Assembly: GCF_006345805.1 (NCBI RefSeq)
Contig: NW_021836044.1
Span: forward strand, 1-25,483
Length of the DNA stretch: 25,483 nt
Direction: 5' to 3'
Source of the DNA: Octopus sinensis
Lineage: Eukaryota
Positions 4,698 through 25,483 of the stretch are shown piece after piece. The notes beneath the pieces were generated by a model, which was given only the letters and a program-made list of their open reading frames with translations, was not told the DNA's origin and did not search any database. Each line of letters opens with the position of its first letter. Within the stretch, counting starts at the first letter, position 1. A program made the translations under genes and the position numbers.

Positions 4698-6195
4698 TGG
4701 AACGAGATAACGAGTAGGGTGGTCACTCTCGCCCAGCAATGGGCCGAGAGGAAAGTGTCCCTAAAAGGTCGGGCGGAGGTGGCGAACGCCTACATCGCGT
4801 CCATCATCTACTACCGCCTGACCGTCGTACCTTGTCCCGACCCTACCATCACCAAACTAGAACGCATCCTCTTCCGCTTCTTGTGGAAAGGATGCGTCCC
4901 GATGGTCAGGCGATCCATTTGCTGCCAACACCCGTTAAAAGAAGGGCTGGGCATGCCGTGGTTGATGATGCGCAGACACGCGCTGAGACTGCGACATCTC
5001 CGGCTCTATGTTCACGACGGTGAACAGGTGTGGTCGCCGTTTGTGAGGCACGCATTCCCGCAACTCGTCTCCATGACCGAACAACAGTCGTGGATCAAAA
5101 AGAGGCCGAGGAAGGGCGAATGGCACCGCGAGTGTCGCGTTGCTCTCAAGCAACTCTGCCGTCCCAGGTCGACCTTGAGTGACTTCAACACAACCAAAGA
5201 ATTCTATAGGGGATTAGTGGAGGGGAGGTACGACGACGATCTCGTGGCAAACCTGGGCGTCGACGAGGAATACCTGACCCGCCTGTTTCAAACGACTTTC
5301 GGCCCGGGACCTATGGACAACTTCCAGAGATCCCTGGCCTGGCGGTGCTACCGAGAAGCGCTACCCGTTCGGGATAAGCTCTATAGGCATGGCTCGAGAA
5401 ACACGGGGCCGACCTGCCCGAGATGCGGGCAGAGCGACGAAACCGCTCTGCACGCAATCGTGCAGTGTCCAGCAATTTCCGACCTGTGGGCTTATGTCGA
5501 ACGACTGCTGTCACGTGTGGGACGTGTCGGTTTATCAGCCGAGTCTATCGTTAATATCGTCACGCCTCCTCCCTTCAAACGGGAAGGAAGAGCTATTTTT
5601 ATCATACTTGTGGCTATGGCGAAAGAATGTATCTGGTGGACGCGCCCGAAAGGATTGGAGACAAACACTTTCCTCTCTGGTCAATCTCTCATCAACTTCT
5701 TCAAGTATCACATGAAGAGGAAAGTGAGAGTAGAGAGGCAAATTTTGTCTAGCGAATGTTTTAAAAAAAAGATGGGTGAATGTAGCAAGGATGGCACGTA
5801 TGAATGACGAAGCCACCTTGACTATGTTTCTATGAACCGTAAAAATTAATACAGAGAGTTGCTTATTTGCAAAAAAAAAATAAAAGAAAGAAATATAACA
5901 TGTGACTTCATTGACCGAGGTTATCGTGGTCTTTTCCGTAGGCTTTTCTTTACACTTCATATTGACATTTCTGTGATTACGATCCCTATTGATCAACTTT
6001 TTTCCTCTCCCCTTTCCTTTTATTTTTTTCCCTCTCCCCCCTTTTTTAAAAAAATCCTCCCCTTTTTGTCCTCTTTCTTTCCTTTTACGATCCCTTTTGA
6101 TCGAAACCCAACCCCCTTTTTTTACCCCCAAAAGAAAAGCTCAACCTTGTAATTTGTTCTGTCTGTGTGCAGCCCTGTGTGGCTAATAAAGAAAC
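4698..6195 (+). mobile_element. 5'-truncated Tx1/L1-clade non-LTR retrotransposon (C-terminal ORF2 plus 3' UTR)
   Basis: Open frame WNEITSRV..SLKGRAEVANAYIASIIYYRL..FRFLWKG..GLGMP with a zf-RVT CCHC motif CPRCGQSDETALHAIVQC. One extra A in the run at ~5763-5770 hides the likely true end KKRWVN..TMFL* (5835). AATAAA at 6185. Flanked on both sides by (TATC)n. Confidence 0.9.
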
Positions 6196-6522: not shown

Positions 6523-7351
6523 AATCAAACTATCATGTGTCTGTCTAGCTATCTCTCTATCAATCATTGTCTGTATCTTTATCTTTCTATCTCTCTATCT
6601 ATTACGTCTCTCCATATATCGATATACATATATATATATACACACACATATATACATTCATTTACATTTGCTTATTTTGACACACACAAACACACACGCA
6701 GACACACACTTTCACACACACATATACATAATATAAAGGGAGAGGAAAATCAAATCATGGGACGCAACTTACAAGCATTGTACTACAATCCAGGCTCTGG
6801 TAAACCACATCGAATGGTCCGGCAAAACGGGAAAATCTTTATGGTAAACAATCATTGTCTTTCACTTAGTTCCAAAATTCCGAGTTCACTATTTCGGGTT
6901 TTATCCTGTGTAAAAGACATTAAAATAAGAATTAAATGTTACACATGAAGTAACTTACTTTTTAGTATATTTTATATACAATGAAATTTAGTTATTTTAT
7001 ACCTGTGAATGACACGCCTTTCTGCTGCATGTATATCATAAGCATTAGCATCAGGTTACATCCTGCTGGTTGAAAACTGTACCACCAGTATGCAGTAATT
7101 ATAACTTTAGACTCAGATACTGATACCGGTGGAATGTAAAATACGGCTGCATGCCATTGCTAAAATTTTGAATAAACAGGATGCAAACTTACACCGGGCA
7201 CAATAATGTGCTATGATACACATATACACACCCGCAAACACACACATGCTCACACATACACACACACACATTCATATATATATACGCATAATTGTGTTCG
7301 TTGTGTTCTGCTACTTCAATGAAAAAATGTTTGGTAAATAAACAAATGACG

Positions 7352-7399
<48 letters not shown>

Positions 7400-7437
7400 A
7401 CATATATATATAAACATTCACTAACTCTTACGAACAG

Positions 7438-7456
7438 AGGTGAAACCAATTCTTTG
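7438..7456 (+). other. Paralogous candidate 19-nt micro-exon
   Basis: CACTAAC-tcttacgaacAG | AGGTGAAACCAATTCTTTG | GTAAGT. Splice signals match the 16621 copy while 3 of 19 exon bases differ. Confidence 0.4.
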
Positions 7457-7631
7457 GTAAGTTACGATTTTCATTATATTACATCGGCCATCAATTGGCC
7501 ATCGTTCAGACACCTCAACGGCATTTAGGATGGGATAAAAAGGGTCTCCACCCTTAAGACATCATATGTTTGTGTTCCCAAATTACCTAAAATGTTATTT
7601 ATGCTTTTATTTTTACTTCAGTAATTTTCAG

Positions 7632-7843
7632 TTAACCCATTAGCATTGGCACTGGCCACGTCGGGCCCAAATATTCTTCCTGTTTTCTGTGGAAACTGAA
7701 CACATTAGTCCTTTCACAACCACCATGCAGTTATTCTAAAAGTAAGCAATCACATAATCAAAATCTCAAAGCTAGAAGATAACGTATGTTTAATTGTAAA
7801 CGATGTGAATAAATAAGTAATTCATCTGAATGTTGAAGGAGTA
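7632..7843. mobile_element. Decayed piggyBac-type MITE (paralog 16815-17028)
   Basis: Left end TTAA-CCCattagcatt and degenerate right end aatgttgaaggagta, about 210 bp, non-coding. Confidence 0.5.
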
Positions 7844-8385
7844 TCCCCTTCTAGCTGGTACAATAATGAAACAGCAATTCCATCTCAAATTACAAGTGGG
7901 GTCTTTTTTAAGAACACATTTCAGGTTCGAGGGAGTGGTTAAGAATGTTAGTAGTACAAAAAATCGGGTCGGTATTTTTCTTAGTATTTGACTTTTGTTA
8001 ATTATTGTTTGAAGCCGAGAAGGGTCAAATGAGAGTAGAGACGGTTGAAAAGCAAAAATTTGAAGAAATTTGTGATGTGTGTTGGAGAGATTTAGGAGGC
8101 TGAGAGGAGGATGAAAAATCGATTGATCATAATACTTGGAATAAATTTGGGATGCGTGTTATATATATTTATATTTCTGTGGGTATCTATATATATGCTG
8201 ACTACTTAATGTTTTTGATACTGTGTATTAATGTAGGAGTTTATATGTATATATATTGTGCGTATATGTGTGTGTGTTTGCATGTATGTATGTAAGAGCT
8301 TATATGTATATATTATGTATTTGTAAATGCAATTTTGGATATTTCATATGTATTGCATATGCTCATATATATATATATATATATA

Positions 8386-9577: not shown

Positions 9578-10420
9578 TTTCATTTTTTGTCATATTCATA
9601 TCGACTTCCACTCCATAAACGTTACACAAACACTTGACTGCGCATGCCTAAATGTCTACATTAAAGTATTTTCTAAGCTAAATTCTCTGCTTGATCTACA
9701 GGCTCATTAGGCCCCCAGTATATCTCGGTATCGAACGCATTTCAACACACAAGGATGCAACACAAGATGCCAGTCTGTCGCAATGTTAACCCCTGGTTAA
9801 TGCTGGTACTTTTCAGATGAGAGCACTGGAAGTGTCTTTCTCGTGGACACAACTTACCGAAACAATAATCCATACGCCTATATGTGTGTGTGTGCGCGCT
9901 TACGAACATATCCGTGCGTATGTGTGTGTATTTTTGTATGCATGTACACACACACACACACAATCTTTTATTCTTTTAATCTTTTGCTTATTTAAGGTGA
10001 ATTTCAAAGTCGTTATGCCAATCACATAATCACCTTCCGACATAGGCCAAAAGTAAAGCTACGAAAGTGGCTAAGTTTGGAAGAAAACGAAACACCACAT
10101 GTGACTGGTTGGGAAGTAATTGAGAATCCATAACTGATGTGAATGGATCGAATAAATATATGCTTTGTTTAGCTGAAAGAGTGCATATCCTGTTCAGATC
10201 TAAGATGCTTAATTCTCTATTGGACTCTAGGTCGGAAATTTTCAGTCGTTATCAAGTAAAAATATATTTTGAAAAACTGAAAAATTCCGTCTATTCTTGA
10301 TTAAAATTATGATATCTTTTTAGCCTTATAATTCAAGGTCTAACGAGAACTCTTAAATGCTGTTTTTACTTTTCCCTTTTCCCATTTTCGTTTTTGTGCT
10401 TTCGCTTTCCGATTTCCGGA

Positions 10421-11785
10421 ACACTGGGCATGCTGTGGAAGACATGCACTGGGGCTGCGGCATCTCCAAACATTCTGCGTAAATGGTGAACAGGTGTGGT
10501 CATCGTTTGTCAAACAGGCTTTTCCACATCTCATCTCCTTGAGTAAGCTGCAGTCGTGGGTCAAGAAGAGACCGAGGAAGGGTTACTGGCATCTGGAATG
10601 TTGCTAGGCACTCACTGTCCTCTACCAGGTGGGCAATGCGATCAGTGGAAAATCCACTCTGAAGTTCTATGGAGGTTTAGTGGAGGGAAAGTGCGATGAA
10701 GCACCTGGAGAGACGTTAGGCGTTGACAAAATTGAACTAACCAGTCTGTTGAGGAGGACTTTCAAGACGGGGATAATGGATAACTTCTAGAAGTCCCTTG
10801 CTTTGCAGTGCTATCGGGGGGCACTGCCGGATCGAGATAAACTCTACAAGCACGGAAGCGCTGTCTGACCGACCTACCCGAGATATGCGCAGAGCGATGA
10901 AAGCGTTCTGCACGCACTCGTCCAGTGTCCCTGCATTACTGGCTTGTGGAGTTATGTTGAAAAGCTGTTATTAAGTGTAGGGAGTTTCTATCTATCGGCC
11001 GAGTCCGTAGTGAAGATCGATCAGCCGCTTTCCATCAGTCCGGAAGGTCAGGCAATTTACTACTGTCTAATAGCAGGAGCGAATGAGGCTGTTTTTTGGA
11101 CCAGGTTAAAAGGACTAAAGGCAAGGACTTTTCTCTACGGCAAATCACGGGTCAACTTTTTCAAAGTTTCTTTGGAAAGGAAGATGAGGGTGCAGAGTGA
11201 AGTGCTGCCTCCCAGTACATTTGCCAAAAGGTGGATGAACAGAGAAAATGGTACGTGTGAGTGGACCTACTCTAATAACACGCCTTTGGGCTAGTGAATT
11301 TGAGAGGGAGGAGAGTGCTCTCACCAGATGCCCTCGAAGCGTCGAGTGGTTCAGGATTGGGGTGTGGGTACCTGAGCCAACTCCAGGGGATTACCTGCAC
11401 CTATTACGAACTTTCATTGTTATATTCTCTTGTCGGACATCATTGTTATTCTTTTAACTGTGTACTCGTTGTCTCTGTGTTAAATCCCCACTGTCCATGT
11501 CTACTGTGTCCTGTTTCTTTACTACCCACAAGGGGCTAAACACAGAGAGGACAAACAAGGACAGACAAACGGATTAAGTTGATTATATCGACCACAGTGC
11601 GTAACTGGTACTCATTTAATCGACCCCGAAAGGATGAAAGGCAAAGTCGAACTCGGGGGAATTTGAACTCAGAAGGTAACGGCAGAAGAAATACCGCTAA
11701 GCATTTCGCTCGACTTACTGAAGATTCTGCCAGCTCTCACCGCCTTTTCTACTGTATCTTCTCCCATATGCCGGCCCTATTGGCA

Positions 11786-12361: not shown

Positions 12362-12585
12362 TATGTGTGTGTGTGTGTGAAATAGAAAGATGAATAATCT
12401 TGTAGTAGATTAATCAAAAGTTTAACCGATACCTTAGTAGCAAAAATCACAGCAGTAAACAGCACGGTTGGAGGTACAACCATCTGGCGTTGCAACCGTG
12501 CGTTGGTGCGGATAATTGAAATTAAAACATTATTGGTGAATTGAAGAAATGGAGCTGAACGCAGATTGAACAGAAATCGTTTTAT

Positions 12586-12672
12586 TTCATTCTACACGTG
12601 TTTCGAAAGGCACAAATTACCAAAATCCGATTGAATAATGGGACCATATTGTGTCTTTCTCTTCAGGAAGAA
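12586..12672 (-). ncRNA. Type I hammerhead ribozyme, inverted copy
   Basis: Reverse complement of the 13609 motif with CUGAAGA at 12666-12660. Stem II is better paired here (gaaagacacaa/ttgtgcctttc, 10 of 11 pairs). Confidence 0.8.
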
Positions 12673-13608
12673 AAAAGGAAATCCGTTGGAAAAACAAAAA
12701 CAGAACTGAGGCGGAGCAAAAACAAATCGAACTATGCTCCTAAGAGCCCATGGCGAAACTGTTTATCAGTGTATGTTGAGAACCGGTGGCTGAAGAATTC
12801 AACGGGTCAGGCATCGGTCAATCATGTGGGTGAGGGTGTATAGATGTTCTTTGTGACCGAGAATAAAGTTCTGACTATTTAAGGAATATTGGATGTTTTA
12901 TAAGGGGCGAGAAAAAATCTACTTAGAGACGTGTGTGTGTGTATACTGTTCTATATATGTGTGTGTTGGCGTAGGGGTAGAAAACATTTTTTGTGTACGT
13001 GTGTGCGTTTGATCGTTCGGCTGTCAGTGGCTACTGCCGTGAAAACCGTTGGGTGGCAGAAAGAAAAAAAAATATATATATATTATGTTTTATGTGTGCG
13101 TGTGTTCATCTAAGCCTGCCTTGTCAAGGAAACCCCCCGCTGTGAAAAAACCAAGCCCCGTTTGTCTTACAGGAGTAATTCCCCTTGCAGTGGTTAATCG
13201 TAGATATCTTTTTTTTTCTTTCTGCCACCCAACGGTTTTCACGGCAGTAGCCACTGACAGCCGAACGATCAAACGCACACACGTACACAAAAAATGTTTT
13301 CTACCCCTACGCCAACACACACATATATAGAACAGTATACACACACACACGTCTCTAAGTAGATTTTTTCTCGCCCCTTATAAAACATCCAATATTCCTT
13401 AAATAGTCAGAACTTTATTCTCGGTCACAAAGAACATCTATACACCCTCACCCACATGATTGACCTATGCCTGACCCGTTGAATTCTTCAGCCACCGGTT
13501 CTCAACATACACTGATAAACAGTTTCGCCATGGGCTCTTAGGAGCATAGTTCGATTTGTTTTTGCTCCGCCTCTGTTCTGTTTTTGTTTTTCCAACGGAT
13601 TTCCTTTT

Positions 13609-13693
13609 TTCTTCCTGAAGAGAAAGACAATATGGTCCCATTATTCAATCGGATTTTGGTAATTTGTGCCTTTCGAAACACGTGTAGAATGAA
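13609..13693 (+). ncRNA. Type I hammerhead ribozyme (PLE-type)
   Basis: Stem I 5' ttcttc, CUGAAGA (13615-13621), stem II gaaag...ctttc, GAAA (13675-13678), palindromic stem III cacgtg, UA (GUA triplet, cleavage after 13686), stem I 3' gaa(t)gaa. Confidence 0.8.
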
Positions 13694-13764
13694 ATAAAAC
13701 GATTTCTGTTCAATCTGCGTTCAGCTCCATTTCTTCAATTCACCTATATATATATATATATATG

Positions 13765-14845
13765 TCTTAGGATGTGGAATGTTCGTATCAGCTAACACGG
13801 ACTGTGTCATCATAATACAGTCCACGAAGTGGTGATAGGAGCAATGCTTATCCAAGAGAAGTCAGTGGGCCTGCAAATCGGCAGGTGGAGAGGCAGACCC
13901 ATACCAACCGACAGTTTGTAGGGCGTTAGACGGAAAGACAGGTTAAACTGCTTGGGTTCTGGTTTGCTCTTGACCTCGGGGTGGACAACAACGGCTGGGA
14001 GGTGACGAACAGGATAGTCGATCTCACCCAGAAGTTGGCAGAGAGGAAGCTGTTCGTGAATGGTCGAGTCGAAGTGGCGAATGCGTACATCCCTTCCGTC
14101 ATCTATGACTGCCTGAATGTAGTCCCATGCCCGATAAAGTTAGAGCGTTTGTTATTCCGCTTTCTAAAGAAGGGACGTGTTCCGCTCATCAGACGGTCCA
14201 TCTGCTGTCAACAACCTCTCAGTGGAGTACTGGACATGCCGTTGCTAATGATTCGCAGACATACGCTGAGACTGCGACATCTCCTGCGTTTCTTTAACGG
14301 TGAGCATGGGGGATTGACTGTTTGTCAAACGGGACTTACCGCAGCTCGTCTCACTGATGAAGCTACAGTACTGAGTGAAGCGTTGGCCAAGAAAGGGCGC
14401 TTGGCACCTGGAGTGTCGGCAAGCTCTCACAGCTTTCTGCCAGTCGGCAACGCGGGCGTTGATAGTTCCACCATGGATTTCTATAGGGGATTAGTAGAGG
14501 GGAAAGAACAACAACGAAATCGGGTAAAATTCTGGGCGTAGGTGGAGGGAATCAACTAACTGGTCTTTAACTTCCAGGAATCCCTGGCCTGGCAGTGCTA
14601 CCTGGGAGCTCTGCCGATTCAAGACAAGCTCTACAGATACGAAAGTGTTGTCGGACGAATATGTCGAGGGTGTGCGCACGGCGATGAAATAGTCCTGCAT
14701 GCACTCATCCGTCCAGTTTACGAGCTGAGTTCATTGTAAAGATCGCCCCGCCACCTTCTTTTGGCCGGGAAGGAAAAGCAGTTTCTTCTGCGCGGTGGCT
14801 AAAGAAGTACAGTGGTGGACGAGACTGAAAACATTGAAGACTAAA
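13765..14845 (+). mobile_element. Decayed Tx1/L1 LINE fragment (end of RT through the zinc-finger region)
   Basis: EKSVGLQIGRWRGRP..VKLLGFWF..ERKLFVNGRVEVANAYI..IKLERLLFRFL..RRSICCQQP..FYRGLVEG..NFQESLAWQCY is clearly homologous to the 4698 ORF. Confidence 0.85.
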
Positions 14846-15589
14846 CCTCCTTCACAGAAAAATTATGTCATTTAATATTATCATTTAATATTATCATTAA
14901 TATTCACTTCAGTTTTATATTAAAGAAACACTTAGGCATGGTTATGTATCTCATTGCATCACACACAAACACACACACAAACACACACACACACACACAC
15001 ATACACACACACACACACACACACATACACATCAGGACATATACACTTGAAGACCCTTCACACCACAAAATCCTCGCCTGTCATCCTTCTTTCGTATAAA
15101 ATAATGTTACTTTGTTAACGAAAATTCTTTTCCCATAACTTTAAAGCTGCTAAAACCTTTAATTCCTCTTCAGAATTGTTATAATTTCTCTATCATATAC
15201 TTTATTTCACAAACGTAATTTTCTGAAACGAACTATTGTTAAATGAATTTGTATCATTTGCTTCCAAGTCAATCATTATATATACCATTTAAATTATTAT
15301 CGTTATTGATAACGTGATTTTCTTTAGTGACACTATCGTTAAATGAATCTATCGTCTGCTCACAGGAAATATTTGGCTGCTATTTCTAGCACATCCAGCT
15401 TAAACTTCAGAGATTCTTCACGAAGAGAATGGTGGATGACAATGTGAACACTGGAGGGTCTTACAAAGAATTTAGAAATGTACTTCATTTTAATGTTGAC
15501 TTTAGACGTTGTATTTGGGAAGAGATCGATGATCAATAGGTATCGATTATTTCTTTGATACGAAAGTTTCTTCAGAGTATTACTTCTTC

Positions 15590-16069: not shown

Positions 16070-16620
16070 ATATAGATATATACATGAATATATACGTATA
16101 TATAATTCTGATAACTGTGTGTGCGTGTGTATATATATATACATACATATACTCACACACACACAGATATCACAATTTGTAAAATAGTACTTAGATTATT
16201 TCAAGTTAATTTCAGTTCCGCGGATGCAAACAGTCTCATACAGTTACGCATATACACACACACATACACACACAAAACCCACTACCTCTTCTTTCTCCCA
16301 CCCTCCCTCTCTCTTTCTATCACTTTCTTTCCCCTCTCTCATTTACACTCTTCCACTACCAACGCCCATCTTTGACTGCTGACGCAAACTTTTCATATCG
16401 CATTCATATAATGAGAAATAAAGACGCCAATCTATATCTACACACACACACACACACACACTCACACACGCACACACACATATATATATATGCATTATTG
16501 TGTGCTTTGTGTTCCGCTACTTCAATGAAAAAATGTATGGTAAATAAAACAAATGACGCAATATATATATGCGCATATATATATATATATATATAAACAT
16601 TCACTAACTTTTACGAACAG

Positions 16621-16639
16621 AGGCGAAATCACTTCTTTG
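16621..16639 (+). other. Candidate 19-nt 5'-UTR micro-exon of the LRR gene
   Basis: Branch point CACTAAC, then ttttacgaacAG | AGGCGAAATCACTTCTTTG | GTAAGT. The ATG exon at 18689 has its own acceptor, so an upstream exon is required. Confidence 0.5.
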
Positions 16640-17079
16640 GTAAGTTACGATTTTCATTATATTATATCGGCCTTCTATTGGCCATTGTCCAGTCTCCTCA
16701 ACAGCATTAAGGATGGGATAAAAAGGGTCTCCATCGTTAAGACCTCATTAATTTGTGTCCCGAAATTACCTAAAATGTTATTTATGCTTTTATTTTTACT
16801 TCAGTAATTTTCAGTTAACCCATTAGCATTGGCACTGGCCACGTTGGGCCCAAATATTCTTCCTGTTTTCTGTTGAAACTGAACAGATCAGCCCTTTCAC
16901 AACCACCATGCAAAGTTATTCTAAAAGTAAGCAATCACATAATCAAAATCTCAAAGCTAGAAGATAACGTATGATTAATTGTAAACGATGTAAATAAATA
17001 AGTAATTTATCTGAATGTTGAAAGAGTATCCCCTTCTAGCTGGTACATTAATGAAACAGCAATTCCATCTCAAATTACA

Positions 17080-17355
17080 AGTGGGGTCTTTTTTAAGGAC
17101 GCATTTCAGGTTCGAGAGAGTGGTTAAGAATGTTAGTAGTACAAAAAATCGGGTCGGTATTTTTCTTAGTATTTGAGTTTTGTTAAGTATTGTTTGAGGC
17201 CGAGAAGGGTCAAATGACAGTAGAGGCGGTTGAAATGCAAAAAATTTGAAGAAATTTGTGATGTGTGTTGGTGAGATTTGGGAGGCCGAGAGGAGGATGA
17301 AAAAGCGATTGATTATAATTTGCTTCGTTTGATTTAGGGCCATTTTTATTTGTTC
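17080..17355 (-). mobile_element. Possible N-terminal PLE ORF fragment (paralog at ~7895-8135)
   Basis: Frameshifted TNILNHSL.EPEM.VLKK.P resembles the PLE pre-RT motif (VxNLSxxxLxxxExxVLxKG). Confidence 0.35.
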
Positions 17356-18158: not shown

Positions 18159-18708
18159 CTTACGTTCATGCTTTATTCTTGTTTTCAGGAAAAAAAAGTA
18201 AGTAAAATGAAATCATGAAAGTGTATTTGAGGAAAAATTTGTATAAACGCTTCTAAACCTGGGGTACAGGAAAAATTCCTTTGTTACAATACAGTTGCTT
18301 GTGGGGTCCCATCGGATTTAACGACCCAACCGGGTTTACAACCACTGCGTATTTAGGGTCTACGAAACTCATGGTTCGCTGGTTTTGTAAATATATTAGA
18401 CCCCACCCCCGAGTATGGTTACAGATGTGTGTAGGAGTGCGTTTGTGTTTGTGTGTGTGTGTTTGGTGTTTTCTTTGATATTATTACGCGTTAAAGCTAT
18501 AATATTTTTATAAATTTCTTCACACTAATTTATCGAAATTTAATTTTTTAGCTTTAAATATCCAATCATGAAAACAAAAATATATTTGTCATGTAGAACA
18601 GGTGTGAATTTTAGTTCCTTCGGAGAATCTGCAATGTGAAGTTAATAACATTGTAATCTCTGACATTTCCTATTTTCTTCTTTTACAGATAAATCTACGC
18701 CTGGCAAT

Positions 18709-18899
18709 ATGTTTCACCACGTAGTATCATATAGACGGTCTCTTGTGTTGATATTGTGTACGATATTGTTTTTGGAGACTCAAGCTAATTCAGATATATG
18801 CAACATATGTAATTGCAATTCACTTACAACGAGTGTAAATTGTGCAAATCGCAATTTACAATCAATTCCACAACCAATTCCGACGAATGTTGAATATTT
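18709..18899 (+). CDS. First coding exon of a secreted/cell-surface LRR protein: signal peptide plus LRR N-terminal cap (LRRNT); exon spans 18689-18899
   Basis: Polypyrimidine tract ...ttttcttcttttacAG ends at 18688, ATG at 18709, donor GTAAGT at 18900 (phase 2). Translation MFHHVVSYRRSLVLILCTILFLETQA-NSDICNICNCNSLTTSVNCANRNLQSIPQPIPTNVEY(L) has a hydrophobic signal core followed by the canonical LRRNT pattern CxxCxC...VxC....LxxIPxxIP. Confidence 0.9.
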
Positions 18900-20347: not shown

Positions 20348-21244
20348 TTATAACAGTTCAATGAACAAATGCAACTATGACGACGTCGAATATGACACCT
20401 TGCAGTATATTGTCTAGTTGTTTGTGATCTGAGTTAAAATCCCACACTTTTTATTTTACCGATTTTGAAAAAAGGATCAGACACGTTTTATAACTCCTGC
20501 AAGATCTCCAATACTTGTGATGCAGATATCATTAATATTCCGTTTGAGCTGCTGCAGGTCAACCTTTACAGGAATAATGAATAGGGATGCTACTTAGGGG
20601 ATGAAGGATTTAGCATAGGTAGTTAATAATGGGAACAAACTGAGGTTTAATACAACAAGAAAAAGAAGCAAAGGACTAAAAAAAGACGAAAAAACTAAGG
20701 CAATGTATGTAATCACATCCCTTTTTTAAATAACACCCTAAGCCAGTTAAATCACCATGTAAGGTTGTTCTCCTTTGTAGCACATGACTCAAAATTATAT
20801 CAGGGTTTCCCCACTCTGCCTTCACCAATTCTATTAATAAATCCCTTTCTATTTCTGTTATGTTTTCCTTCCTAGTCTATTATTTCAGTCTTGACGTTTT
20901 GGGGGTTTATTTTTGTGAAGAACCTTTATGCATCAATTATGCAAAGGAAAGGAGTTTACTTTTGCAAAGATAAATTACTTTTGACAGCAAAGTGTAATAA
21001 CAAATAGAATGCTCATTGGACAGAAACAAGATATTTATAAATAAAGCTGACTTCTGAGATGATAAAAATATCTTCCACTGAAAACTGATGTTGCAACGAA
21101 TGCTTTGTAAATCTAATTCAAATCACAAATATTTTGAACATCCATTCTTTTCTCATATTTTACATGCATGTGTGTTTTTCATTCATACATTACGTGGTGA
21201 CTTAAATCCGTTTTATATCTTATATAATAAACTACCCGTAAATC

Positions 21245-22015
21245 GAACAGAACCTTCGTGAAGAAGAAAAGAAAGCCTTACAAACTGAAGAATGACAATT
21301 CAATCATCCTAAAAGAAACCGATTAGGGAAGGGTGATAGCAGTCACGGACCAAGACTACTATAAAAATAAAATATTGGAAACAGACCAATCCTGCTACAA
21401 GGAAGAACCAAGACACCCGGAAAAAGTAATAATGAATACACTCAAAAGTCTGATAAATGAATACCAACGTTCGTTCACAGATAAAGAGAAAGATTATTTA
21501 TGCAGCTCTGTAATGAAAGAGAGTAATTTCTATGGATCACCCAAGATCTGCGAATGCTCCAAAATGCAAGGATCAGCATATAAAAATACTAAGACCTACT
21601 GACATCAAATTGAGATCAACAGTTGCTGGACCTTGAGCCCCAACACAACAACTGAGCCATCTTTTGGATATACTCCTCAAACCGTTATGCCCATTAATGG
21701 CCAGCTATACCCGAGACGATATGGATCTCCTCAAGCACATTCCACAAGCACATTCCACCCACTGTCCCAGACGTACTATAGTGACAAGCTTTGATTAATT
21801 TTTACACTAATACACATCACACTTTGGGCCTGGAAGCAATCAAACACTGGGTAGAAAAACATAGCGGACGGATGGACGAACGCTTCAAAACGCATTTCCA
21901 AAGACACACGCCGGGAACTAGAAGACAACACCTTTAGATTCGATAATAAACTATATCGACAGATAAAAAGGACATCACTACGGGGACGAGGTTCGCACAC
22001 ATACTCGCACCCAGA
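21245..22015 (+). mobile_element. Penelope-like element reverse transcriptase pseudogene fragment in LRR intron 1
   Basis: Across frameshifts: NLREEEKKAL..LKNDNSIILKETD*G..DYYKNKI, FYGSPKI (cf. FYGLPKIHK), LRSTVAGP..LSHLLDILLKP..SYTRD, TSFD, NTFRFDNKLYRQIK. These are characteristic PLE RT motifs. Confidence 0.85.
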
Positions 22016-22192: not shown

Positions 22193-22835
22193 TTCTTCTC
22201 CTCCTTCTTCTTCTTCTTCTTCTTCTTCTTCTTCTCTTCTCCGTCTTCTTCTTCGTCTTCTTCTTCTTCGTCTTCTTCTTCTTCTTCTTCTTCGACTTCT
22301 TCTTCTTCTTCTTCTTCTTGGTCTTCTTCTTCTTCTTCTTCTTATTATTATTATTCGTCTTCTTCTTCTTCTTCTTCTTCTTCGTCTCTCTTCTTCTTCT
22401 TCGACTTCTCTTCTTCTTATTCTTCTTCCTCCTCTTGGTCTTTCTTATTTCTATTATTATTCTTCTTATATTATTTCTTCGCTTTCTTTTTCTTCTCGTT
22501 CTTCTTCTTTTTTTTCTTCTTCTTCTTGAATCTTCATCTTCTACGCCTTTTATTTCTTCTTCTGTTTCTTCTTCTCTCTTCTTCTTCTTCTTTTCTCTCT
22601 TGTTCTTTATCTTCTTCTGTTTCTTCTTCCTCCTCTTCTTCTTCTTCTGCTTCTTCCTCTTCTTGTTCTTTATCTTCTTCTTCTTCTCCTTTCTTCTTCT
22701 TCTACTTCTTCTTCTGTCTTTCAATCCTTTTTCGGTTTTCATCTTGAACACTTTCATTTTCCATGTCTACTTTTTCTTGTTCTTGTTCTTCTTGTTCTTG
22801 TTCTTCTTCTTCGTTATATTTCTTCTTTTTCTTCC
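22193..22835. repeat. (TTC)n-rich polypyrimidine tract; a second TTC/CCT tract lies at ~23985-24545
   Basis: Directly visible; it produces the spurious poly-K/R and poly-F/L/S ORFs. Confidence 0.95.
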
Positions 22836-22918
22836 TTTCATTCTGAAGTCACAGTGTTTGATATCGTATCACAAATATTTTCCATATAATCTATTTTACT
22901 CTTTCTTTACTGCTATAG

Positions 22919-22990
22919 AGATCTGAACGAGAACAACATTGCAACCATCAAAGAAGGAGCATTCACGGGGCTTTCGAATTTAAAGACATT
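22919..22990 (+). CDS. Single-LRR exon, 72 nt, phase 2-2: (L)DLNENNIATIKEGAFTGLSNLKT(L)
   Basis: Acceptor ctttctttactgctatAG ends at 22918 and donor GTAAGT starts at 22991. Exactly 24 codons matching the extracellular LRR consensus LxLxxNxIxxIxxxAFxGLxxLxxL. Joins in frame with the phase-2 LRRNT exon. Confidence 0.93.
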
Positions 22991-23534
22991 GTAAGTTCGT
23001 TTAGTTTCTTGATACTATTTTCCGAAAGTAATAATTGATGCTGATATATAAGCTCACAAATGTATAAAATTTCAGACTCCACCAAACAAAATCAATTCGA
23101 ATTTGTAGAATGAACACGATTTAGGAAGATACAAAGAGAATATGAGAGAGCGAGACAATGTGAAAGAAAGAGAGAGAATTTGGGGAGAAAGTGAAATAAT
23201 GGGGAAAATATAATGTTCCTTTATTGTAGTTGCGTTGTTTCAATTCGCATCTCAACAAATCATTTTTGTTTCCCAAATTTCAAAGGTTTTGATATGAATT
23301 TGTATTAGAAATGGTAACGTTTGTGAGTTCACATGTTTGCATCAAATATTTTTAGCTGAAGTATATGTGTATGTTCATATATAAGTGTAGTTCTGTGTGA
23401 GATGTGACTATATTATTCCTTTATTTTATATTTTGCATCTTCCTCCATTTCTTATTTCAATATTCTCCTTCGTGTTTCGATATTAACATTCAACTTCGAA
23501 TTTTGTCATTCACTTCACGTTATTTATGTAATAG

Positions 23535-23621
23535 AGCAACTGAAGTGGAAGCGGAAAATATATATTCGAATAATATCGTCACATCCATTCTATCTGTAAA
23601 CCTGAAATACTTACTGTACTT
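23535..23621 (+). CDS. Candidate extra 87-nt phase 2-2 exon with an atypical LRR-like peptide (ATEVEAENIYSNNIVTSILSVNLKYLLY(L))
   Basis: About 130 nt of AG-free pyrimidine-rich sequence ends in taatAG at 23534. The exon ends TT|GTAAGC like the other exons, is frame-preserving and has no stop. A paralog sits at 25235-25326. Confidence 0.35.
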
Positions 23622-24621
23622 GTAAGCTGGAATATTTGGCCTGATACAATTAAACTGCTGATATATTTCTTGTAAGCGTGTGTTTTCTAAAATTCTTGTG
23701 ACAATGAAGCGATATGAAATAAATAATCACTCTCACCATATTTCCACACAGGTGAGTGAGAATATGTGTGATTGTGAGTGTGTGTATCACCTTACGTCGT
23801 TGATATTATCAATATAAGTATGTGTATGAGTGCATTTGGATATGTTGATTTCTGAAACCGTATATTCCCTGACCTTTAGCCAAGTTCTCTCCTTCAAAAC
23901 GTTTGTTCCCTGTCCCTGAAATATCTCCTTTTTTTCTTTGACTACATTTTCTCTTTCACCTTCTTGAACACCATGATTTTCAATGTGTCTTCTTCTTCTT
24001 CTTTTTCTTCTCTTCTTCTCCTTTTCTTCTTCTTTTCTTCTTCTTCTCCTCCTCCTTCTTCTTCTTCTACTTCCTTTTTCTCTTCTTCTTCTTCTTCTCC
24101 TTCAACTTTTCTTCTTCTTCTTCTTCTTCTTCTTCTTCTTCTTCTTCTTCTTCTCTTATTTCATAAACTTACTCCCGTCTTTTCTGCTTCGTCAGTTTTC
24201 TCCTTTTTCTTTCTCTTCTACTCTTTTCTGCTATTCTCATTCTCCTCCTGCCCATTCTGCACCTCTTCTCTTCTCTCCACCCCTCTCTTCCTCCAATCTC
24301 CTTTTCCTCCTCCTCCACGCCTTCTCCACTTCCCCCGCCCCCTACAAATCACCTTTCCCACCTCCTCATCACCTCATCCCCTTCTACCCCTCCTCCTTCT
24401 TCATTTTTCTTCTCATTCTCCTCCCCTTCTCGTCCTCCCCTACTCTCTTCCTCTCATCCCCGTACGTCTTCTTCTTTTCTTCTTCTTCTTCTTCTTCTTC
24501 TTCTTCTTCTTCTTCTTCATTATCCCTATTCTTTCTCTCTCTTCATTCTAAAGTCACAGTGTTTGATGTCGTATCACAAATATTTTCCATATAATCTATT
24601 TACTTTTCTTTACTGCTATAG

Positions 24622-24691
24622 ACGTCTTGGCAACAACAACATCGCAACCATCAAAGAAGGAGCATTCACGGGGCTTTCGAATTAAAGACAT
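24622..24691 (+). CDS. Second copy of the single-LRR exon, (L)RLGNNNIATIKEGAFTGLSN...; as assembled it is 70 nt with a frameshift/stop, either a pseudo-exon or homopolymer sequencing errors
   Basis: Same acceptor as the 22919 exon. Differs at its 3' end by three single-base losses, all in homopolymers (aattTaaag>aattaaag, acaTT>acaT, gtAAgt>gtagt). Confidence 0.7.
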
Positions 24692-25483
24692 GTAGTTCGT
24701 TTAGTTTCTGATACTATTTTCCGAAAGTAATAATTGATGCTGATATATAAGCTCACAAATGTATAAAATTTCAGACTGCACGAACAAAATCAATTCAAAT
24801 TTGTAGGAATGAACACGATTTAGGAAGATACAAAGAGAATATGAGAGGGCGAGACAATGTTGAAAGAAAGAGAGAGAATTTGGGGGAAAGTGTGAAATAA
24901 TGGGAAAATATAATGTTCCTTTATTGTAGTTGCTTTGTTTCAATTCGCATCTCATATAACTCATTTTTGTTCTACAAATTTCAATGATTTTAATATGAAT
25001 TTGTATTAGAAATGGTAACGTTTGTGAGTTTACATGTTTGCATCAAATATTTTTAGCTGAAGTATATGTGTATGTTCATATATAAGTTGTAGTTCTGTGT
25101 GATAGGTGAATATATATTCCTTTATTTTATATTTTACATCCTCCTCCATTTCTTATTCAATATTCTCCTTCGTGTTTCGATATTATCACACAATTTCGAA
25201 TTTTATCATTCACTTCACGTTATTTATGTAATAGAGCAACTGAAGTGGAAGCGGAAAATATATATTCGAATTTTTTAAAAAATCTAGTACACATCTATCT
25301 GTAAACCTGAAATACTTACTGTACTTGTAAGCTGAATATTTGACCTGATACAATTAAACTGCTGATATATTTCTTGTGAGCGTGTTGTTTTTCTAATATT
25401 TTGTGACAATGAAAGCGCTAATGAAAATAAATAATCTCTCTCACCATATTTCCACACAGGTGAGTGAGAATATGTGTGATTGT

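Follow-up and report, generated by a model that had tools for sequence, protein, structure and literature searches.

Hypervariable single-repeat LRR exons in a young octopus gene family that appears to derive from adhesion GPCRs

A gene with tandem LRR cassettes at a contig end

The stretch of DNA that we analyzed (the window) is 25,483 nt long and is an entire contig of the 2.7-Gb genome of Octopus sinensis, with the contig end at 25483. The earlier note, made from the letters alone, had supposed a cephalopod host, and the host is indeed an octopus. The window contains the following features of one gene, which would be the 5' end of a member of a young octopus multigene family that arose from LRR adhesion GPCRs.

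18689..18899, + strand: exon with start codon (ATG at 18709), signal peptide, LRRNT and first LRR strand; phase-2 donor; translation MFHHVVSY...PIPTNVEY
22193..22834, + strand: (TTC)n tract upstream of cassette 1 (TRF)
22837..24539, + strand: tandem unit 1, comprising acceptor flank, exon, unique intron and TTC tract (TRF and unit alignment)
22919..22990, + strand: LRR cassette exon 1, class A, head DLNENN, 72 nt, AG..GT, phase 2/2, DLNENNIATIKEGAFTGLSNLKTL
23988..24518, + strand: (TTC)n / pyrimidine tract upstream of cassette 2 (TRF)
24540..25483, + strand: tandem unit 2, cut off by the contig end
24622..24691, + strand: second LRR cassette exon, of class A with head RLGNNN; length in the assembly 70 nt (unit alignment)

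The two tandem units of ~1.7 kb described in the earlier note, each with an LRR exon, are real. The cassette exons (22919-22990 and 24622) start 1703 nt apart, and the unique parts of the two units have 94% column identity on alignment. The introns had been called highly similar; this holds for the unique part, but ~550-650 nt of each unit is (TTC)n tract and not alignable intron. Just two units are visible because the contig stops at 25483. The start of the array as given in the earlier note overlooked the signal-peptide/LRRNT exon of the same gene at 18689-18899. This exon is 79-90% identical to the N-termini of 22 octopus LRR/adhesion-GPCR-like database proteins.

Each unit had been said to carry a 24-codon exon of phase 2/2. 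This is true of exon 1 but not of exon 2 as assembled, which is frameshifted and has two exon indels and one donor indel (donor GTAG). These indels are likely read errors near the contig end, because unit 2 has four to five times as many gaps against paralogues as unit 1 (26-30 compared with 5-7 gap events per ~950 nt; 4 of the 5 comparisons were full length). As counted before, the two cassettes differ by eight exon substitutions, seven of them within the first 13 nt and six non-synonymous (DLNEN to RLGNN). The chance that at least 7 of 8 substitutions fall within 13 of 72 nt is P = 4e-5.

A sister contig, C12516, differs from the window at 83 columns in 10.5 kb. Within window positions 22863-22931, seven head bases and one flank base turn cassette 1 into the cassette-2 state (head RLGNNN). 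This difference could be allelic (micro-)conversion or polishing, and it is unusable as proof of conversion because both contigs have the same 3' errors.

Upstream of the gene is a tandem segmental duplication of ~9.2-9.75 kb (1 to ~2000 against ~9750-11780, and ~7230-8100 against ~16440-17300), with blocks that are 90-99% identical. A long inverted repeat at 12531-13748 (arms of 429 nt and 130 nt, 97-99% complementary) is presumably the inverted end of a Penelope-type element, or else a foldback read. The first intron contains, at 21200-22000, a degenerate reverse-transcriptase-like fragment with the motif FDNKLYRQIK, which we take to be Penelope-like. Fragments of one non-LTR retrotransposon family are present at 4717-5830, 720-1500, 10470-11250 and 13850-14850, and a similar copy lies right after an assembly gap in locus C29a. 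A short reading frame of 29 residues at 6757-6843 is identical to the N-terminus of the O. vulgaris model P0016; this frame is possibly an upstream exon of the window gene.

Cassette arrays and the proteins they encode

We found 173 cassette candidates genome-wide, and the 40 that were scored were all at 92-100%. The recent cassette expansion proposed earlier is supported, with arrays far beyond two units. Among 40 scored matches in each case, the first exon had 31 copies at 91% or more, the LRRCT exon had 17, and the last exon had 29 at 93% or more. Chromosome-scale scaffolds carry seven of the first exons and 16 of the last exons; the others are on small contigs, some of them allelic duplicates. 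We estimate that this young octopus family has roughly 15-30 copies. Close relatives are present in O. vulgaris, where models P0017, P0018 and P0063 have the same cassette types. RefSeq names for family members are scattered (slit-like, LRRC4-like, chondroadherin-like).

Each gene strings together ~5-20 cassettes, which belong to class A (NNIATIKEGAF) or class B (NKISRIEKEMF) and follow one another in varying order, and one class C exon closes the array. Cassette number and order differ among the fetched loci, as expected from the copy-number change that the earlier note had suggested. The 600 nt ahead of the exon contain a (TTC)n tract in 75 of 76 class A exons and 30 of 34 class B exons, and in none of the terminal class C exons (0/8). 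The fetched loci contain 166 intact 72-nt LRR exons with no stop codons; ~30 stops would be expected if the bases at the four face codons described below assorted freely. No cassettes were found on the antisense strand of these loci. A further 28 cassette matches were broken or cut, and 18 first exons that were read gave 15 distinct intact peptides and two frameshifted copies. The broken cassettes and frameshifted first exons are either errors or pseudogenes. The second cassette of contig C11691 (L090-L092) has an in-frame 12-nt deletion; the corresponding cassette of C29a, a near-identical sequence, is whole and carries another head. In this one genome, the 155 class A and B exons of the fetched loci encode 104 distinct cassette peptides with 92 distinct face combinations.

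The exon models fit with in-frame skipping of cassettes. RefSeq lists 13 isoforms of one gene (409, 385, 361 and 337 aa) and seven of another, all of them collinear subsets of the genomic cassettes. Skipping of this kind would suit the combinatorial splicing proposed in the earlier note, but some of the isoform models could stem from short reads placed on the wrong one of several near-identical exons.

The paralogues encode a signal peptide, LRRNT, class A and B cassettes, one class C LRR, LRRCT, one or more Cys-rich LU-like domains, a SEA-like segment and an HRM-like segment (Pfam score below cut-off). Some paralogues then continue with GAIN-GPS-7TM and the last exon; in others, a further, partial SEA-like segment is spliced directly to the same last exon. 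The LRRCT exon was considered as the gene end and ruled out, since it splices on. Relatives P0008, P0061 and P0067 have PF01825 (GPS) and PF00002 (7tm_2) above cut-off, and the sequences point to descent of the family from octopus LRR adhesion GPCRs. The nearest solved structures, vertebrate ADGRG2/G6, share the SEA/HRM-GAIN-GPS-7TM layout. Molluscan single LRR adhesion GPCRs (models from Haliotis, Aplysia, Biomphalaria and Nucella) have the same LRR ... SEA/HRM-GAIN-GPS-7TM layout as the octopus relatives with few repeats, namely 2-4 LRR motif matches each. The adhesion GPCR family also has approximately 45 7TM exons that are older; these are on C29, C27, C8, C9, C10, C12 and C14, clustered on C29 and C27. 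In P0067 a Death domain follows the 7TM, and in P0003 the LRR part is fused to ankyrin repeats, possibly a prediction artefact.

The LU-like domain has a three-finger Cys pattern ending in CC-x4-CN, which may be the Ly6/uPAR (LU) three-finger motif. ESM Atlas feature matches were all of the three-finger type, with scores of just 0.75-0.78. There was no Pfam or PDB match for the LU-like domain, no PDB sequence match for the LU/SEA/HRM part, and no usable ESM Atlas match for the C-terminal part. In some models the LU-like domain is tandemly repeated, in up to four copies (P0019, P0052 and P0021 among the proteins noted).

Many young copies have no GAIN or 7TM exons. Close matches in the young branch were 2 of 75 for 7TM and 4 of 44 for GAIN, compared with the 29 last exons. 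In fifteen loci, the HRM exons and the last exon share a strand and are 7-21 kb apart, and no match to GAIN/7TM was found between them (five loci read in sequence, ten by coordinates). The five gap-free loci run from HRM to the second SEA-like segment, the last exon and a stop, and for these five mere assembly fragmentation is ruled out as the cause of the missing 7TM. Gene C29b has an assembly gap after its HRM exons, and its lack of 7TM may be due to fragmentation. The last exon of these loci also follows the 7TM exon in two intact receptors, and the donor phase fits. Because intact receptors have this last exon in common after the 7TM exon, we conclude that the loss was an internal deletion. 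None of the GAIN/7TM-less models scanned (6/6) had a hydrophobic C-terminal segment, and at least 15 young copies without GAIN/7TM are predicted to be secreted.

The truncated end is also found in the O. vulgaris models P0017, P0018 and P0063. A minority branch retains GAIN (C10618; P0007, P0008), and the O. vulgaris models P0007, P0008 and P0011 combine window-like cassettes with GAIN/7TM. The 3' end of the window gene is off the contig. Over the first intron it shares 97% identity with the soluble-type gene C9761 and 93% with two other loci of that branch. The window gene is probably of the soluble rather than the GAIN/7TM type.

Variation at exposed LRR positions

Variation among cassettes is concentrated at four codons. 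Across 68 class A exons, codons 1, 3, 4 and 23 hold 10-12 amino acids each, and L2, N5, I7, F15 and L21 are nearly fixed. The x positions of the LRR consensus LxLxxN are exposed positions of the beta-strand, and on the basis of this consensus the variable codons are predicted to lie on the concave binding face. Position 14, which is not among these face codons, is also variable (1.94 bits).

We compared divergence in disjoint nearest pairs, omitting 10 loci that are likely duplicates or old paralogues. One intron segment served to pick the pairs, and a different segment was kept for the measurement. By a counting method, face pN was 0.404 in class A (27 pairs) and 0.280 in class B (11 pairs). 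Held-out intron divergence was 0.055 (A) and 0.016 (B), and framework pN was 0.052 (A) and 0.031 (B) compared with framework pS of 0.156 (A) and 0.067 (B). The excess of face pN over framework pS had Fisher p values of 1e-11 (A) and 5e-5 (B), with significance overstated because related pairs are treated as independent. Face pN was also greater than face pS (p = 0.015 for A and 0.009 for B, likewise overstated by relatedness of the pairs). The LRRNT strand had no such excess, with pN close to pS (0.316 and 0.263). Framework pS in class A is three times the held-out intron value, and part of the exon excess is therefore due to exon-wide exchange and not to selection. The focus of variation on exposed positions that the earlier note had reported from two exons thus exceeds both intron and synonymous background, and these counts suggest diversifying selection at the four face codons.

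Exchange among cassettes is indicated by the four-gamete test, in which 191 of 300 informative site pairs were incompatible among 39 unique class A exons. Such failures are due to recombination or recurrent change. The gene conversion proposed in the earlier note therefore has a recombination signal in its favor, but recurrent change would account for the same signal. Conversion between classes A and B was also considered, from heads common to both; just one 13-nt head was shared of 48 and 28, and this weak idea was dropped.

Across seven pairs of near-identical contigs, 19 of 588 bases differed in the face codons, 16 of 2,940 in the framework and 226 of 98,559 in the introns. Three of the seven pairs had no face difference, and the face differences in the others are possibly polishing artefacts.

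Known systems, alternatives and possible role

The parent family has been described in part. Group 3 of Ritschard et al. 2019 (PMC6408891) is, in the sections available to us, an octopus-specific expansion with LRR, GPS and a secretin-type 7TM, arranged in tandem clusters and with positive selection at the level of branches. Proteins there were chosen by a 7TM Pfam signature; LRRs were found in 5 of 22, and no positively selected sites were found. Two listed members, A0A0L8GYR2 and A0A0L8HDZ7, cluster with our matches P0081 (45%) and P0087 (34%), an assignment by homology and without a tree. We regard group 3 as the parent of the window family and these two members as direct homologues. The same sections of that paper make no mention of one-LRR exons, hypervariable cassettes or members without GAIN/7TM.

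The closest likeness in exon design is to the brown-algal ROCO arrays (Zambounis 2012, PMC3341825; Teng 2024, PMC11378527). As described in the accessible parts of those papers, each 72-nt exon encodes one 24-aa LRR, exons are shuffled within and between loci and alternatively spliced, arrays undergo birth and death, and concave-face residues are under diversifying selection. The octopus family likewise has one LRR per symmetric 72-nt exon, in variable number and order, and an excess of non-synonymous change at exposed strand positions as measured by counting. Alternative splicing of LRR exons may have an octopus counterpart in the RefSeq isoform models. Unlike the ROCO arrays, which have inverted intronic cassettes, the fetched octopus loci gave no antisense matches, and octopus cassettes are each preceded by a (TTC)n tract. 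ROCO proteins are intracellular GTPases, whereas the octopus family encodes an extracellular protein from an adhesion GPCR. The likeness is convergent and not family homology.

The earlier note had compared the window with lamprey VLRs. In the VLRs of lampreys and hagfish, according to the portions consulted of PMC12264053, cytidine deaminases somatically assemble unspliced donor cassettes into an incomplete gene. The octopus cassettes could in principle be templates copied in this way in single cells. The SP-LRRNT-(24-aa LRR)n-LRRCT layout with variable modules and exposed positions does resemble that of VLRs, and of the 64 class A face codons that changed, 42 did so at 2-3 bases, suggesting conversion. 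However, the octopus cassettes are sense-strand germline exons that carry their own AG/GT splice sites, sit between the first exon and the LRRCT exon, and belong to many spliceable genes rather than to one incomplete germline gene with flanking donors. After LRRCT come LU-like, SEA-like and HRM-like segments with no hydrophobic tail in soluble models, unlike the VLR stalk with its membrane anchor. We consider somatic assembly very improbable. Instead of a VLR-like single receptor locus, we found a multigene family with many young members apparently without the membrane part. Neither few units, evenly spread variation, one fixed exon chain nor a single-copy ortholog, which the earlier note had named as signs against its proposal, was found.

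Our results are most consistent with a diversified inherited family of LRR recognition proteins, many of them predicted to be secreted (probability about 0.7). Unequal crossing-over and gene conversion between cassettes would change their number and order and homogenize introns and framework, with the (TTC)n tract in front of each one as a plausible aid to the exchange. Diversifying selection would maintain many variants at the exposed codons, and the symmetric exon phase would let splicing omit cassettes in frame. An internal deletion appears to have removed GAIN/7TM in many copies, giving predicted secreted binders.

The same sequences might also result if a truncated adhesion-GPCR fragment had spread neutrally in a runaway series of segmental duplications, leaving mostly pseudogenes with variability due to relaxed constraint, conversion and assembly noise. 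The region is repeat-rich, with many small duplicate contigs, broken cassettes, rearranged loci and the loss of GAIN/7TM. We think this improbable: the 166 intact exons lack stops, pN in the framework (0.03-0.05) is lower than pS there, face pN is above intron and synonymous divergence, and three O. vulgaris models share both the cassette types and the truncated end. A less unlikely alternative, although still a doubtful one, is that the family and its diversification are as we describe, with a variable surface that acts not in immunity but as a code for cell identity or neural wiring (like protocadherins and Dscam1), or in the recognition of chemicals, gametes or kin. A wiring code usually requires proteins that are anchored in the membrane and keep their specificities. 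Many copies here have no membrane part, and even contigs that are near-identical differ in cassette content (possibly through polishing). Expression in the parent family speaks for such a code. In the available sections of PMC6408891, the parent group 3 adhesion GPCRs of O. bimaculoides are reported to be expressed most strongly in axial nerve cord, suckers and skin, and a role like that of protocadherins is proposed. Skin accounts for 0.71 and sucker for 0.17 of the expression of one LRR-bearing member, and two other members are expressed broadly. Reports of parent-family expression cover nerve cord, sucker, skin and gill.

For the diversified family of recognition proteins that we favor, the evolutionary pattern is what suggests a role, and we give even odds to recognition of non-self or microbes at body surfaces. 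A more speculative possibility, which we consider less likely than not, is an antibody-like soluble repertoire in the octopus: dozens of germline genes with shuffled, alternatively spliced hypervariable LRR cassettes, born from adhesion GPCRs by loss of the signalling half, with membrane GPCR versions as cell-bound sensor and with cassette content differing between individuals.

We found no description of this octopus cassette family in the literature searched, which did not extend to subscription journals and bioRxiv supplements. New here are the exon-per-LRR cassette design in an octopus adhesion-GPCR family and its predicted secreted branch. To our knowledge, cephalopods have no known adaptive receptors, and the available portions of the review literature on cephalopod immunity mention no diversified receptor family. 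The family is a concrete candidate for diversified cephalopod receptors, with cassettes combined by shuffling and probably by splicing. It would also illustrate how internal deletion can turn an adhesion GPCR into a variable binder that is predicted to be secreted, a kind of protein that is invisible to 7TM-based surveys.
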